Sequence record: NC_011042.1
Length of the DNA: 39,252 nt
Reading direction: 5' to 3' (one strand)
Source of the DNA: Escherichia phage EcoDS1
In this document: piece by piece, positions 2,245 to 7,724 of the stretch
Numbering within the stretch: position 1 is the first letter of the stretch
Layout: each line of letters opens with the position of its first letter
Translations under genes and position numbers: made by a program
Notes under the pieces: model-generated
What the model was told of the DNA's origin: nothing
Databases searched by the model: none
The model's input: the letters and a program-made list of their open reading frames with translations, nothing else

Positions 2245-2266
2245 CTTAACTATCACTATAGGACTC
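2244..2266 (+). promoter_or_regulatory. Phage-RNAP promoter upstream of gene 1
   Basis: ACTTAACTATCACTATAGGACTC matches the 11-copy consensus (-17..+6, +1 G at 2261). Confidence 0.7.
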
Positions 2267-2335: not shown

Positions 2336-5017
2336 ATGAGCGTCATCTCTATTGACAAACACGACTTCTCTGATGTGTCGAACGCCATTGAGCCGTTTAA
2401 CCTGCTGGCTGACCACTACGGGCAAGATCTTGCAGTCAAACAGCTTCAGCTTGAGCATGAGGCATACACTGAAGGCGAGCGACGTTTCATCAAGAACCTT
2501 GAGCGCCAGACTGAGCGCGGGGAACTGGCAGACAATCAGGTCGCCAAGCCTCTTATGCAGACTCTGGTACCTAAGATTGCGCAAGCCGTCAGGGAGTGGC
2601 ATGAAGGTCCAGACGGGAAGCTGTCAACCTCTCGTCCTAGCGTAGCGTTCACCATGTTGAGCACTGAAGAGAAGGCCGTCAAGGATCGCTCTCTTCGTAT
2701 CTCTTGCGAGTCTGCTTCGGTCATCATACTGAAGGTCATACTCTCCAAGCTGGTCAAGCCTGAAGGGATACCGATTACACCGATGGCCTCCGCGATAGGT
2801 CGCACACTTGAGGATGAAATCCGCTTCGGGCGCATTCGTGACAAGGAGAAAGAGCACTTCAAGAAGGCGATAGCTGATAACCTGAACAAGCGAGCTGGGG
2901 CATCCTACAAGAAAGCCTACATGCAAGCGGTTGAGACATCCATGCTGGAGCAGGGTCAACTGGAAGATGCGTGGGGAACTTGGAGTCCTACAGAGGCTGT
3001 CCACGTTGGCATCAAGATGCTTGAGATTGTCATCCAGTCAACACAACTGGTCGAGCTTAAGCGGTACGGTGCTGGCAATGCAGCGGCTGACGTAGAGATG
3101 GTCCACCTGTCAGACTTCTGGGTCAAGAAGATGGCACAACGAGGATTCAGCCTAGCGGGTATCGCTCCAGTCTACCAGCCTTGCGTCGTTCCACCTAAGC
3201 CGTGGACTGGTGTAGTAGGCGGTGGGTACTGGGCCAAGGGTCGCAGACCACTACCACTGATTCGCTTAGGGTCTAAGTCTGCGGTGGCACGTTACGAAGA
3301 CGTGTACATGCCTGAAGTCTATGACGCTGTGAATATCATCCAGAATACACCTTGGAAAGTTAACAAGAAGGTGCTGGAAGTGGTGAACATGGTCGAGAAG
3401 CTGAACAACACGCCTATTGATGACATCCCTCAGATGGAACCGCTGAAGCCTGAAGACTATGCAGGTGAGACTGAAGAGGAACTCAAGGCATGGAAGAAGG
3501 CTGCTGCTGGTATCTACCGCCGAGAGAAGGCCCGGCAGTCACGTAGATTGTCACTAAGCTTTATCGTCAACCAAGCGAACAAGTTCTCTCAATTCAAGGC
3601 CATATGGTTTCCGTACAATATGGACTGGCGCGGCCGTGTCTACGCTGTTCCGATGTTCAACCCTCAAGGTAATGACATGCAGAAGGGCCTTCTGACTCTG
3701 GCAGTCGGTAAGCCTATTGGTGCCGATGGGTTTAAATGGCTGAAGGTCCACGGTGCAAACTGCGCGGGTATCGATAAAGTAACCTTCGAGGAGCGCATCA
3801 AGTGGGTGGAGGACAACCACGACAACATCATGGCTACTGCTAAGGCACCGATGGATAGCATTGAGTGGTGGGGCAAGTTAGACTCTCCGTTTTGCTTCCT
3901 TGCGTTCTGCTTCGAGTATGCTGGCGTGATGCATCACGGATTGTCTTACTCCTGCTCGCTGCCAATAGCTTTCGATGGGTCCTGCTCTGGGATTCAGCAC
4001 TTCAGCGCGATGCTTCGTGATCACATCGGTGGACATGCAGTAAACCTGACGCCTTCCGGTAAGGTCCAAGACATCTACCGCATCGTGTCTGACCGCATTG
4101 AGGAGGAGCTTAAAGTCCTGCTGGTTAACGGCACGGACAACGAGATGGTAACTCACGAGGACAAGAAAACTGGTGAGATTACCGAACGTCTCAAGCTGGG
4201 GACACGAGAGCTGGCCCGGCAGTGGCTTACTTACGGCATGTCACGTAAGGTCACTAAGCGTTCGGTCATGACTCTGGCCTACGGGTCGAAAGAGTATGGC
4301 TTCGCAGACCAAGTTTACGAGGACATCGTGATGCCAGCGATTGACTCAGGGTCTGGCGCTATGTTCACTGAACCAAGCCAAGCGTCTCGCTTCATGGCTA
4401 AGATGATTTGGGAAGCTGTGAGCGTGACCGTAGTTGCTGCGGTTGACGCGATGAAGTGGCTTCAAGGTGCTGCCAAGCTGCTGGCTGCTGAAGTGAAAGA
4501 CAAGAAGACTGGAGAAATCCTGAAGCCTTGCCTTCCGGTACACTGGGTCACACCTGATGGGTTCCCGGTCTGGCAGGAATACCGCAAGAAGGATACCACT
4601 CGTCTGAACCTGATGTTCTTAGGGTCATTCAACCTTCAACCTACGGTCAACAAAGGCACGAAGAAAGAGTTGGATAAGCACAAGCAGGAGTCGGGCATTA
4701 GCCCGAACTTCGTCCACTCACAAGATGGTAGCCACCTCCGCAAGACTGTAGTCCACACGCACCGCAAGTATGGCGTGATGTCATTCGCAGTGATTCACGA
4801 TAGCTTCGGGACCATCCCGGCTGACGCTGAGTATCTGTTCCGTGGTGTCCGTGAGACGATGGTCGAGACCTACCGCGACAACGATGTGCTGCTTGACTTC
4901 TACGAGCAGTTCGAATACCAGCTTCACGAGAGCCAGCGCGACAAGTTGCCTGAGCTTCCGAAGAAAGGTAAACTGAATATCGAAGACATCTTGTCTTCAG
5001 ACTTTGCATTCGCTTAA
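2336..5017 (+). CDS. T7-type single-subunit DNA-directed RNA polymerase (gp1)
   Basis: 893 aa; long stretches match T7 RNAP (CVVPPKPWTG, AIWFPYNMDWRGRVYAV, DSPFCFLAFCFEYAGV, LPIAFDGSCSGIQHFSAMLRD, HDSFGT, C-terminal FAFA). Confidence 0.98.
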   Translation: MSVISIDKHDFSDVSNAIEPFNLLADHYGQDLAVKQLQLEHEAYTEGERRFIKNLERQTERGELADNQVAKPLMQTLVPKIAQAVREWHEGPDGKLSTSRPSVAFTMLSTEEKAVKDRSLRISCESASVIILKVILSKLVKPEGIPITPMASAIGRTLEDEIRFGRIRDKEKEHFKKAIADNLNKRAGASYKKAYMQAVETSMLEQGQLEDAWGTWSPTEAVHVGIKMLEIVIQSTQLVELKRYGAGNAAADVEMVHLSDFWVKKMAQRGFSLAGIAPVYQPCVVPPKPWTGVVGGGYWAKGRRPLPLIRLGSKSAVARYEDVYMPEVYDAVNIIQNTPWKVNKKVLEVVNMVEKLNNTPIDDIPQMEPLKPEDYAGETEEELKAWKKAAAGIYRREKARQSRRLSLSFIVNQANKFSQFKAIWFPYNMDWRGRVYAVPMFNPQGNDMQKGLLTLAVGKPIGADGFKWLKVHGANCAGIDKVTFEERIKWVEDNHDNIMATAKAPMDSIEWWGKLDSPFCFLAFCFEYAGVMHHGLSYSCSLPIAFDGSCSGIQHFSAMLRDHIGGHAVNLTPSGKVQDIYRIVSDRIEEELKVLLVNGTDNEMVTHEDKKTGEITERLKLGTRELARQWLTYGMSRKVTKRSVMTLAYGSKEYGFADQVYEDIVMPAIDSGSGAMFTEPSQASRFMAKMIWEAVSVTVVAAVDAMKWLQGAAKLLAAEVKDKKTGEILKPCLPVHWVTPDGFPVWQEYRKKDTTRLNLMFLGSFNLQPTVNKGTKKELDKHKQESGISPNFVHSQDGSHLRKTVVHTHRKYGVMSFAVIHDSFGTIPADAEYLFRGVRETMVETYRDNDVLLDFYEQFEYQLHESQRDKLPELPKKGKLNIEDILSSDFAFA

Positions 5018-5032
5018 CAGCAGGAGAAGTAT

Positions 5033-5263
5033 ATGTCAATGAAACTTGTAGCACACAACAAGGCATTCAACGATGGGTCGGGACGTTGCCATGTAGAGCT
5101 GACTTATAAGGATTTAATCATTCTCCGAGACAGATTACAGTCGGGTGTGACTGGGTGGATTCAACCTAACGAGTACAACCTTATAGCTTCGATTGATGAA
5201 GTTCTTAACGCGTGGATGAAAGACGAGCGCACTCAGTATCCGTCATTCCCTACAATTAGATAA
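5033..5263 (+). CDS. Hypothetical early protein (76 aa)
   Basis: ORF track; GGAG RBS before ATG; no T7 counterpart at this position. Confidence 0.55.
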   Translation: MSMKLVAHNKAFNDGSGRCHVELTYKDLIILRDRLQSGVTGWIQPNEYNLIASIDEVLNAWMKDERTQYPSFPTIR

Positions 5264-5273
5264 GGAGAGAGTT

Positions 5274-5489
5274 ATGAAATTTGCACACAAGCAGACAGGC
5301 GTTAATGGTGGGACTCAAATCGTGACCGTAACAGAACACAACGGCAAGGGTCTGGTGAAGACCACGGTCATCCCAACCAAGATGTCCAAGCAGCTTAACA
5401 TCCAGTTCAAGACTCTTGTATATCTGGTCGAGTCCAGCCACGAGAAGTTCCTGAAGGACGCAGTGTCCAAACTGGAGCAGACCAAATGA
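5274..5489 (+). CDS. Hypothetical early protein (71 aa)
   Basis: ORF track; AGGAGAG RBS; no recognisable motif. Confidence 0.55.
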   Translation: MKFAHKQTGVNGGTQIVTVTEHNGKGLVKTTVIPTKMSKQLNIQFKTLVYLVESSHEKFLKDAVSKLEQTK

Positions 5490-5563
5490 CAGACCTGCAG
5501 TTACTGGCCCTGTGGCTGGGAGCACTTGCAGTATTCACTTTAATCCAACGCAGAAGAGGTTAA
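5486..5563 (+). CDS. Small hydrophobic peptide (25 aa)
   Basis: ATGA overlap with the upstream stop; MTDLQLLALWLGALAVFTLIQRRRG is a single TM-like helix with a basic tail. Confidence 0.35.
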   Translation: MTDLQLLALWLGALAVFTLIQRRRG

Positions 5564-5567
5564 CCCT

Positions 5568-6038
5568 ATGTTCGGTAAGTCAAAACTTAAAGCACAAATC
5601 AAAGAGTTGAGCATGAAGGTGGCATACTTGGCGCGAGAAGTAAAGGTCCTAGATAACAACAATGAGAGATTGAAGGGTAAACTTGCTGAATCAGAGCGTA
5701 AGCGCCTAACGCCACCAGCGTCCGTAACTGTCAAGCGTATGGTAGGCATCAAGTTCAAGGTACTGTTCAACGGGCTGTACCAACCGACTGAGTTCAAGAC
5801 TGGACCGGGTAACTGCGGTAAGAACGTTAAGCACTTCACTACATCGAAGACTGAACGCACCATTACCATCCACCAGCACCACATAGATGGGTCTCAGAAA
5901 GACTTCGAGTACCGACTGAGCGACATCGACGGTCGAATCCAGTATGACTATGAGCAAGTTAAAGTCTACGGAGAAGAGGCCGAACGTGAGCGAGAGCTTC
6001 AGGCATTCATGCGGGTAAGGCCGCGCATCATCTTCTAA
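5568..6038 (+). CDS. Hypothetical early protein (156 aa)
   Basis: ORF track; AGAGG RBS; N-terminal charged/coiled-coil-like region; its TAA stop lies inside the following phage promoter. Confidence 0.6.
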   Translation: MFGKSKLKAQIKELSMKVAYLAREVKVLDNNNERLKGKLAESERKRLTPPASVTVKRMVGIKFKVLFNGLYQPTEFKTGPGNCGKNVKHFTTSKTERTITIHQHHIDGSQKDFEYRLSDIDGRIQYDYEQVKVYGEEAERERELQAFMRVRPRIIF

Positions 6039-6056
6039 ACTATCACTATAGGATTA
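6034..6056 (+). promoter_or_regulatory. Phage-RNAP promoter (phi1.1-like)
   Basis: CTAAACTATCACTATAGGATTAG; +1 G at 6051. Confidence 0.8.
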
Positions 6057-6061
6057 GACTC

Positions 6062-6088
6062 AAGGTCATGACTCAGAGTCGTGGCCTT
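6062..6088 (+). other. RNase III-type processing hairpin (R1.1-like)
   Basis: AAGGUCAUGAC/GUCGUGGCCUU stem of 11 bp including G-U pairs, 5-nt loop; paralogous to the hairpins at 13055 and 35950. Confidence 0.5.
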
Positions 6089-6126
6089 CATGATTAACCC
6101 TAATAAACTACTGGAGATTTAACCGT

Positions 6127-6306
6127 ATGTATCAGAACACTATCAACTTCGAGCGCATCCGTGAACGTCAGCAGACTGAAGGTTACATTCCTAAGGGCCG
6201 CAAGCTGAACAAGACTAAGCGTGGCGGTGGTGTCAAAGGCGCTTTCCGAAACGCTGAAGGTAAAGACTCTATGGTCAACCAAGAGAAATACTTCGTAGGA
6301 GTGTAA
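6127..6306 (+). CDS. gp1.1-like small basic protein (59 aa)
   Basis: Contains GRKLNKTKR as in T7 gp1.1; GGAG RBS; sits between the RNase III-like hairpin and gene 1.2. Confidence 0.65.
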   Translation: MYQNTINFERIRERQQTEGYIPKGRKLNKTKRGGGVKGAFRNAEGKDSMVNQEKYFVGV

Positions 6307-6309
6307 GTA

Positions 6310-6561
6310 ATGAGTAAACGTTGGTTATTCGACGCATCACCTAGCCAGTGGTCAGCGTTAGGTAGGACCCACCGCGAGATGAGCGAGGCAGGACTTGAGG
6401 TCCGAATGGATGACCTGCCGTGCTTCGGAAAAACTCTGGTCAGAATAATTGAAGCAGATGGTGGGAGGCTTCTGGTCTCCAGAGAATTTACCGAAGATGA
6501 AATCTTTAGCTGTGAGCAATGGTGCTTACAACAATTGAACGCTTATAGGAGCTGGAAATAA
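6310..6561 (+). CDS. gp1.2-like protein (host dGTPase inhibitor family)
   Basis: 83 aa; position and C-terminal ..WK as in T7 gp1.2; AGGAGTG RBS. Confidence 0.7.
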   Translation: MSKRWLFDASPSQWSALGRTHREMSEAGLEVRMDDLPCFGKTLVRIIEADGGRLLVSREFTEDEIFSCEQWCLQQLNAYRSWK

Positions 6562-7667: not shown

Positions 7668-7703
7668 AACCCAGTGGTCTTCACGGACTGCTGGGTTTCT
7701 TTG
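7668..7703 (+). terminator. Intrinsic terminator after the early region (TE-like)
   Basis: AACCCAG...CTGGGTT stem followed by TCTTTG U-tract immediately after ligase, the position of T7 TE. Confidence 0.6.
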
Positions 7704-7724
7704 CGTCTGGGCCACCAGCTAGAC

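Follow-up and report, generated by a model that had tools for sequence, protein, structure and literature searches.

Phage T3 carries gene 1.05 between gene 1 and gene 1.1, and the stop codon of this gene lies within the next phage promoter (phi1.1). Phage accessory regions have been described as hotspots between core genes that hold small, variable, fast-evolving and horizontally exchanged genes (Silas et al., 10.1101/2023.04.06.535777). In this work we analyzed the slot between gene 1 and gene 1.1 in Escherichia phage EcoDS1 (sequence record NC_011042.1), a member of the genus Kayfunavirus; its closest records are further Kayfunavirus genomes (K1F-like Studiervirinae). The whole 39,252-nucleotide (nt) stretch is referred to as the window, and all coordinates are given on its plus strand. 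At positions 5033-6038 four small open reading frames (ORF1 to ORF4), all on the plus strand, are packed between the end of gene 1 (5017) and a phage promoter core (6039). We concluded that this is an ordinary but well-defined accessory slot and that the four ORFs are genuine genes. Comparison of related genomes showed that the slot is modular: ORF2 and ORF3 form a constant pair, and ORF1 and ORF4 are cassettes that can be exchanged. An earlier sequence-only reading of this DNA had compared the slot with T7 alone, and the T7 annotation does agree with it that no coding sequence is found between gene 1 and phi1.1A. That comparison was misleading, however, as T3 carries gene 1.05 at the ORF4 position; given the positional orthology of ORF4 and T3 gene 1.05, only against T7 does the locus look unusual.

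The distribution of the four ORFs was examined in 24 related loci (L001-L024) and in the phage records of GenBank, which include about 220 Kayfunavirus genomes. ORF2 is found in all 24 loci and in 218 GenBank records. ORF3, counted as DNA by a blastn search of GenBank, is likewise found in 24 of 24 loci and in 220 records (218 at 80% coverage or more). ORF4 is present in 15 of the 24 loci and in 167 records, 88 of these carrying it at full length, and ORF1 in three loci (one at 45% identity) and in 38 records, nearly all of them from E. coli phages. Because they are present in about 218 Kayfunavirus genomes, ORF2 and ORF3 belong to the backbone and are not accessory. The sequence-only reading had regarded the entire block as accessory and had expected that it would not be universal in close relatives: this holds for ORF1 and ORF4, which vary among close relatives, and fails for ORF2 and ORF3, i.e., for half of the block. 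Patchy presence between conserved flanks was observed for ORF1 and ORF4 and not for ORF2 and ORF3.

The two variable genes also show the older alleles and the independent assortment that go with horizontal exchange. The synonymous divergence (dS) of ORF1 and ORF4 is 1.15-1.17, compared to 0.38-0.49 for the RNA polymerase gene and gene 1.1, and among the 24 loci ORF4 is found with either ORF2 allele type while ORF1 occurs with or without ORF4. Since dS is more than twice that of the flanks and ORF4 accompanies both ORF2 allele types, the cassettes were exchanged by recombination and are not just fast-evolving. On these sequence comparisons, ORF1 and ORF4 are true swap-in cassettes, each often absent and assorting independently of the other. 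The slot contains ORF2, ORF3 and ORF4 in phage SEA1f and ORF1, ORF2 and ORF3 in LM33_P1; in K1F only ORF2 is annotated. A concatenated ORF1+ORF4 query against GenBank phages found no carrier of both genes. One apparent carrier, MBBL139, was rejected, as the match was a one-piece read-through alignment with no real ORF1. The four-gene layout was present in two metagenomic loci (L008 and L026), with ORF1 alleles 42-45% identical. The MBBL139 record (OR786095, 'Staphylococcus phage MBBL139') is one of several near-identical Kayfunavirus genomes deposited under Gram-positive or Acinetobacter host names, together with MT350292 ('Enterococcus phage EFA-1') and PV615262 ('Acinetobacter phage vB_Aba_01KA'); these records are probably contaminants or have mislabelled hosts.

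Compared with genomes that lack ORF4, the insertion is exact and can be written as CCCTA[TG...TTCTA]AACTATCAC: the junction in ORF4-less genomes is ...GGTTAACCCTAAACTATCACTATAGG, and in EcoDS1 it is ...CCCTA[TG-ORF4-TTCTA]AACTATCACTATAGG. It follows that ORF4 was inserted exactly from ATG to stop where the promoter begins on its upstream side, with its TAA absorbed into the promoter. Judging from these junctions, the boundary of the ORF4 cassette is promoter microhomology. ORF1 is flanked on both sides by a TAA-(C)AGGAGA motif, and in ORF1-less genomes the stretch from the gene 1 stop to the ORF2 start reads GCTTAACAGGAGAGAGTTATG; as far as the aligned motifs indicate, the ORF1 boundary is ribosome-binding-site microhomology.

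Next, the window was compared with the related Kayfunavirus loci for selection. The ratio of nonsynonymous to synonymous divergence (dN/dS) is 0.32 for ORF1, 0.19 for ORF2, 0.20 for ORF3 and 0.37 for ORF4, with reference values of 0.06 for the C-terminus of the RNA polymerase and 0.09 for gene 1.1. The reading frames of all four ORFs are preserved across the related genomes, and this preservation, together with purifying selection, places them beyond chance. The block is compact, with intergenic gaps of 15, 10, and 4 nt in addition to the ORF2/ORF3 overlap, where ATGA at 5486-5489 is common to the ORF2 stop and the ORF3 start. Shine-Dalgarno-like motifs are AGGAG 6 nt 5' of the ORF1 ATG, AGGAG 6 nt 5' of ORF2, GGAG 8 nt 5' of ORF3, and GAGG 8 nt 5' of ORF4. 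The sequence-only reading had listed these four ORFs, each with a ribosome-binding site and two of them coupled by ATGA, and the ORF, motif and selection data bear it out. Minus-strand ORFs of 114, 89, and 83 amino acids (aa) across the block were dismissed as mechanical because selection tracks the plus-strand frames and, to our knowledge, every gene of T7-like phages is on one strand. Table 1 shows the features of the slot and its surroundings.

Table 1. Coordinates of the EcoDS1 slot, its boundaries and nearby transcription signals in the window (pI, isoelectric point; E, E-value).
Feature	Coordinates	Strand	Product (aa)	Description
Phage RNA polymerase promoter core, exact ACTATCACTATAGG	2249..2262	+		5' of gene 1; identical to the core at 6039
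Gene 1, T7-type RNA polymerase	2336..5017	+	893	Annotated as RNA polymerase in all relatives; upstream slot boundary
ORF1	5033..5263	+	76	Optional cassette; phrog_28104; pI 6.7; YP_002003742 'unknown product'
ORF2	5274..5489	+	71	Genus-wide backbone; phrog_8082; pI 9.85; YP_002003743 'gp1.1'
ORF3, MTDLQLLALWLGALAVFTLIQRRRG	5486..5563	+	25	Putative hydrophobic single-span micropeptide; genus-wide; unannotated
ORF4 (gp1.05)	5568..6038	+	156	Optional cassette; Pfam PF25755; phrog_8103; YP_002003744
Phage promoter core, phi1.1 equivalent	6039..6052	+		Begins right after the ORF4 stop; arrangement as in T3 gene 1.05/phi1.1
Hairpin in place of the T3/T7 R1.1 RNase III site	6062..6088	+		12-bp stem, -16.1 kcal/mol, z -3.05
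Gene 1.1 homologue	6127..6306	+		Pfam PF08200 Phage_1_1, E 5.6e-11; downstream slot boundary
TE-like intrinsic terminator	7668..7704	+		3' of the ligase gene; 13-bp GC-rich stem then TTTCTTTG

The phage promoter core ACTATCACTATAGG occurs in nine copies in the window, exact or with one mismatch. The promoter at 6039 had been taken as the first phage promoter, which is incorrect: the first copy starts at 2249, about 75 nt upstream of gene 1. We know of no equivalent promoter upstream of gene 1 in this region of T7. The promoter at 2249 means that the phage RNA polymerase can also transcribe the block, and it probably does so; transcription of its own gene and the accessory block from this site could constitute positive feedback. 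When the region 5017-6039 was scanned for the promoter core with up to 3 mismatches, no match was found, and no promoter, terminator or stable hairpin is present between gene 1 and ORF1. Upstream, a candidate host-type promoter lies near 609-638, and downstream the TE-like terminator is at the position at which TE is annotated in T3 and T7. By analogy with the T7/T3 programme, the block would lie within this early host RNA polymerase unit and be co-transcribed with gene 1, in keeping with the early expression that had been suggested from the sequence. The T3 annotation places the R1.1 stem-loop at the position equivalent to the 6062-6088 hairpin, and an Rfam scan of the whole window found no RNA family. 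A 9-mer, TTAACCCTA, is present at 5560-5568 and 6094-6102 (two exact copies in the genome vs. 0.22 expected); the copies flank ORF4, the promoter and the hairpin, and the sequence resembles the 5' half of the T3 promoter. ORF4-less genomes mostly retain both copies, and L005 and L010 carry TTAACCTAA at the first site.

What might the four products do? In our proposal the four genes would be co-transcribed with gene 1 by the host RNA polymerase at the start of infection, and the products would be binding-type proteins of 3-18 kDa without catalytic signature. Their action on host components would be stoichiometric and would serve host takeover, counter-defence or exclusion, with ORF1 and ORF4 as dispensable, host-specific modulators. 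Stoichiometric host binding seems the most likely function because these are small non-enzymatic early proteins encoded beside gene 1.2, whose product is known to inhibit a host enzyme. We would give about an even chance to this reading, in which host components are bound stoichiometrically and ORF1 and ORF4 are dispensable, host-dependent factors. No enzyme family was detected in Pfam, NCBIfam or PADLOC, and the PADLOC and NCBIfam searches gave nothing meaningful; profile searches found no match to housekeeping enzymes, as the sequence-only reading had anticipated. Searches of Pfam, PHROGs, NCBIfam and PDB profiles and fold searches, i.e., of general libraries and none dedicated to anti-defence, found no homologue of the four ORFs among characterised inhibitors (Ocr, gp0.7, gp2, gp1.2, gp5.9, and others). 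We found no functional data in the literature on gene 1.05/gp1.05, EcoDS1 or Kayfunavirus early genes. The text part of the supplements of Silas et al. (10.1101/2023.04.06.535777) contains neither the four sequences nor mention of EcoDS1 or K1F. Gene 1.2 (dGTPase inhibitor; 6310-6561 in the window) is dimorphic: the window allele gives tblastn matches of 81-87% identity in 7 of 24 loci and one of 28% in an eighth, and the other 16 loci have no tblastn match to it at that position. In SEA1f, LM33_P1, Peacock, and yong1 the annotation of the gene at the gene 1.2 position nevertheless reads dGTPase inhibitor.

ORF4 is 100% identical to 'gp1.05 [Escherichia phage EcoDS1]'. Its residues 58-128 match PF25755 (Phage_T3_1_05) with an E-value of 4.6e-24 and 84.6 bits against a cut-off of 27, covering profile positions 2-73 of 73. 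It belongs to this family both by the gathering threshold of the hidden Markov model and by positional orthology with T3. The earlier statement that none of the proteins can be recognised was therefore wrong for ORF4, and it was right in that no characterised family or solved fold is convincingly matched by the four. The AlphaFold2 model of ORF4 (63-sequence alignment; predicted local distance difference test score, pLDDT, 85.5) has a helix at residues 2-47, six beta strands at 53-133, and a helix at 135-150. The N-terminal helix shows a heptad repeat with hydrophobic residues at 3-4 spacing from L7 to L39, and the protein has a pI of 9.8 and a net charge of +11. According to the model, ORF4 probably dimerises through its coiled coil and so displays a pair of basic beta domains. 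A sequence-profile search of the PDB gave nothing significant for ORF4, and the beta domain is without a solved structural neighbour. ORF4 shares the gp1.05 core motif F-x2-G-x-G-x-C-G-K ... Q ... K-x-F-x-Y ... G-R, and the invariant core over T3, Erwinia L1, Pseudomonas UNO-SLW3, and Yersinia phiR8-01 is F-x2-G-x-G-x-C-G ... Q ... K-x-F-x-Y ... G-R. The Walker-A-like stretch G-P-G-x-C-G-K-[T] in ORF4, which fits GxxxxGK[ST] by eye, was rejected: the domain is all-beta and the stretch forms a beta-hairpin loop in it, and neither K nor T is conserved (UNO-SLW3 has E; the last position can be N or V). The label 'Microtubule-binding protein' carried by some ORF4 homologues was also set aside as unsupported, and we ascribe it to coiled-coil composition.

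The basic charge and the likely dimerising helix would also suit a nucleic-acid-binding factor that acts on the adjacent promoter/origin or its transcripts and not on host proteins. T3 gene 1.05 shares sequence with the annotated primary origin and, at its end, with phi1.1, just as the ORF4 stop codon TAA is part of the upstream region of the 6039 promoter. Fold and profile comparisons gave sub-threshold hints in the same direction, to the DNA-binding Sso7d fold (Foldseek probability 0.77, E 0.18) and to the coiled coil of YabA, a replication-control protein (E 0.022). Every one of these similarities, however, is below significance, and the gene is missing from T7 and from more than half of the Kayfunavirus genomes with the same promoter and hairpin. 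EcoDS1, unlike T3, has no promoter upstream of ORF4. The domain is also found far from the origin in other phages: its location is always an early region, as in a Pseudomonas phage (upstream of the RNA polymerase gene) and in a Melnykvirinae phage. Since the Pseudomonas and Yersinia phages carry it elsewhere in the early region, 1.05 is an early-gene domain that is not linked to the origin. We consider a role of ORF4 on the neighbouring DNA or RNA unlikely and prefer the binding of host components.

ORF3 has been overlooked by gene callers. All 24 loci compared with the window preserve its start and stop codons as well as its overlap with the ORF2 stop. The ratio of nonsynonymous to synonymous polymorphism (pN/pS) is 0.26 in the ORF3 frame, whereas each of the two alternative frames gives about 1.2. 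The peptide has a mass of 2.9 kDa, a grand average of hydropathy (GRAVY) of 0.73, and a mean Kyte-Doolittle value of 2.14 over residues 5-20; its variable positions remain hydrophobic and the QRRRG tail is invariant. ORF3 has, in other words, the membrane-length hydrophobic span and the peptide-level conservation expected of a micropeptide. In Salmonella phage ST15 the ORF3 peptide is 100% identical while ORF2 is 45% identical. A distant metagenomic phage carries a diverged ORF3, VTDNQLWLTLWSAFLITFIVFQRRRG, with a GTGA overlap; in this diverged lineage the ORF3 DNA is much changed and the hydrophobic core and the QRRRG tail are retained. From these alignments ORF3 is the most conserved element of the slot, identical despite ORF2 at 45% and surviving deletion of ORF2. 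The exact ORF3 sequence has no entry among approximately 15 billion proteins. In several GenBank Kayfunavirus records the ORF3 region and the promoter are instead covered by an annotated ORF of 38 aa in a different frame (L050:631-747 and L051:633-749, corresponding to window 5512-5610), which has a very poor phanotate score of -0.23. The frame-specific selection pattern indicates that the 38-aa call is wrong and that ORF3 is the real gene. ORF3 probably resides in the inner membrane, and by the positive-inside rule its C-terminal RRRG tail would face the cytoplasm. We tentatively suggest that these 25 residues may be a functional micropeptide of the inner membrane that is universally conserved in Kayfunavirus. 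If true, ORF3 could represent a new kind of early membrane effector, for example for superinfection exclusion or for blocking a membrane-bound host system, and this effector would act with or downstream of ORF2.

The same conservation could be read as that of a cis element, the 78 nt serving as a recombination anchor between the variable cassettes, as the ORF4 ribosome-binding site or as an RNA structure, with no gene involved. In 139 of 220 records the DNA is 95-99% identical, even where the ORF2 protein is at 45%; the 3' end of ORF3 provides GAGG for ORF4, and ORF3 has never been called as a coding sequence. A cis element, however, does not explain a pN/pS that is low in frame only, nor the coupling by ATGA or GTGA together with start and stop in every genome, nor a divergent lineage that alters the DNA and keeps the hydrophobic core and QRRRG. 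ORF3 is also conserved in genomes without ORF4, and its dS is the same as that of the backbone, indicating that the DNA is not unusually frozen. We regard a purely cis-acting role as quite unlikely and continue to treat ORF3 as a gene.

ORF1 is a small family: a set of 5.8 billion proteins yielded 9 clusters at 90% identity and one of 1.84 billion yielded 5 representatives, and no match to it was found in Pfam, NCBIfam or PDB sequence profiles. It is positioned directly 3' of gene 1 in every member examined, even in homologues 38-49% identical. The N-termini of ORF1 and ORF2 look alike by eye; a diverged tandem duplication was rejected, as BLASTP gave no match and the hhalign probability was 0.3%. 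Their patchy distribution, clean excision boundaries and frequent loss might indicate that ORF1 and ORF4 are moron-like passengers, selfish or neutral, of no benefit to the phage. This is highly improbable given purifying selection (dN/dS 0.32 and 0.37), frames intact over alleles down to 38-51% identity, 39-kb genomes under tight packaging limits, the fixed position of ORF1, and the persistence of the 1.05 domain over several Autographiviridae genera.

ORF2 is a basic beta-beta-beta-alpha-alpha protein. It is named 'gp1.1' in the EcoDS1 and K1F records and has no similarity to T7 gp1.1: no Pfam match was found at E-values up to 1, and so none to Phage_1_1 (PF08200). The name is a misnomer, since the Phage_1_1 match falls on the 6127-6306 ORF. 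A PDB sequence-profile search gave nothing significant for ORF2. In the fold search LptE/RlpB appeared as a structural neighbour, with generic similarity only; type III secretion chaperones, SecB, IclR, and hibernation factors score nearly as well, and because several unrelated folds match almost equally the ORF2 fold is considered generic. ORF2 is approximately half the size of LptE and without sequence similarity to it, and its N-terminus, MKFAHKQTGVNGG, has no hydrophobic leader, signal peptide or lipobox Cys as in the LptE/RlpB lipoproteins. LptE mimicry, with no signal peptide and with many equally good unrelated matches, was dropped to a note on the fold. A -1 frameshift fusing ORF2 to ORF3 was also rejected, as no slippery heptamer is present 5' of the ATGA; termination-reinitiation is the simpler reading of the ORF2-ORF3 coupling suggested by this overlap. 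In L052:1501-1779 (Logan contig SRR31227532_31833) an in-frame deletion joins ORF1 residues 1-64 to the last ORF2 codons, so that nearly all of ORF2 is gone and ORF3 is intact. Provided that this assembly is right, at least one lineage can do without ORF2.

Kayfunavirus phages (K1F, LM33_P1, the BASEL Bas105 group, and others) are used in therapy development against encapsulated and multidrug-resistant Enterobacteria, and determinants of host range and counter-defence usually sit among early accessory genes. This work provides a map of the kilobase, with two cassettes with exact boundaries and one genus-wide gene pair including a missed micropeptide gene. It also corrects the annotation in that ORF2 is not gp1.1 and the 38-aa ORF over ORF3 is in the wrong frame. 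The EcoDS1 phage, its deposited hypothetical proteins and the gp1.05 family name were already known, and half of the block is genus core. What is new is the exact cassette anatomy, the conserved unannotated micropeptide ORF3, and the combination of ORF1 and ORF4 in EcoDS1 relative to the GenBank phages searched. The slot analysis reveals no new mechanism. Being widespread in Autographiviridae and having a beta domain modelled with confidence, the gp1.05 family would be a sensible subject for work on structure and interactions.

Among known systems the gp1.05 name is also used in phages phiSG-JL2 and Erwinia L1, as well as in EcoDS1. T3 gp1.05 has 90 aa and consists of the beta domain alone, whereas ORF4 adds the N-terminal coiled-coil helix and the C-terminal helix. 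The T3 locus has its own phi1.05 promoter and an origin upstream of the gene; ORF4 is without them, and they are features of the T3 locus and not of the family. For ORF3 the nearest parallel is T3 gene 1.5 (L042:4715-4792, MWLILFAIVATLGLMVADDNIWPDC), also a 25-aa hydrophobic peptide, just downstream of the early region. Its sequence is unrelated, its C-terminus is acidic whereas that of ORF3 is basic (RRRG), and it lies at another genomic position, while ORF3 is translationally coupled to ORF2. Early regions of the T7 group may recurrently contain hydrophobic micro-ORFs, a feature still unstudied. The EcoDS1 slot is similar to the accessory regions of Silas et al. and lies next to a known host-directed gene, gene 1.2; of its four genes only ORF1 and ORF4 fit that description, whereas ORF2 and ORF3 are fixed.

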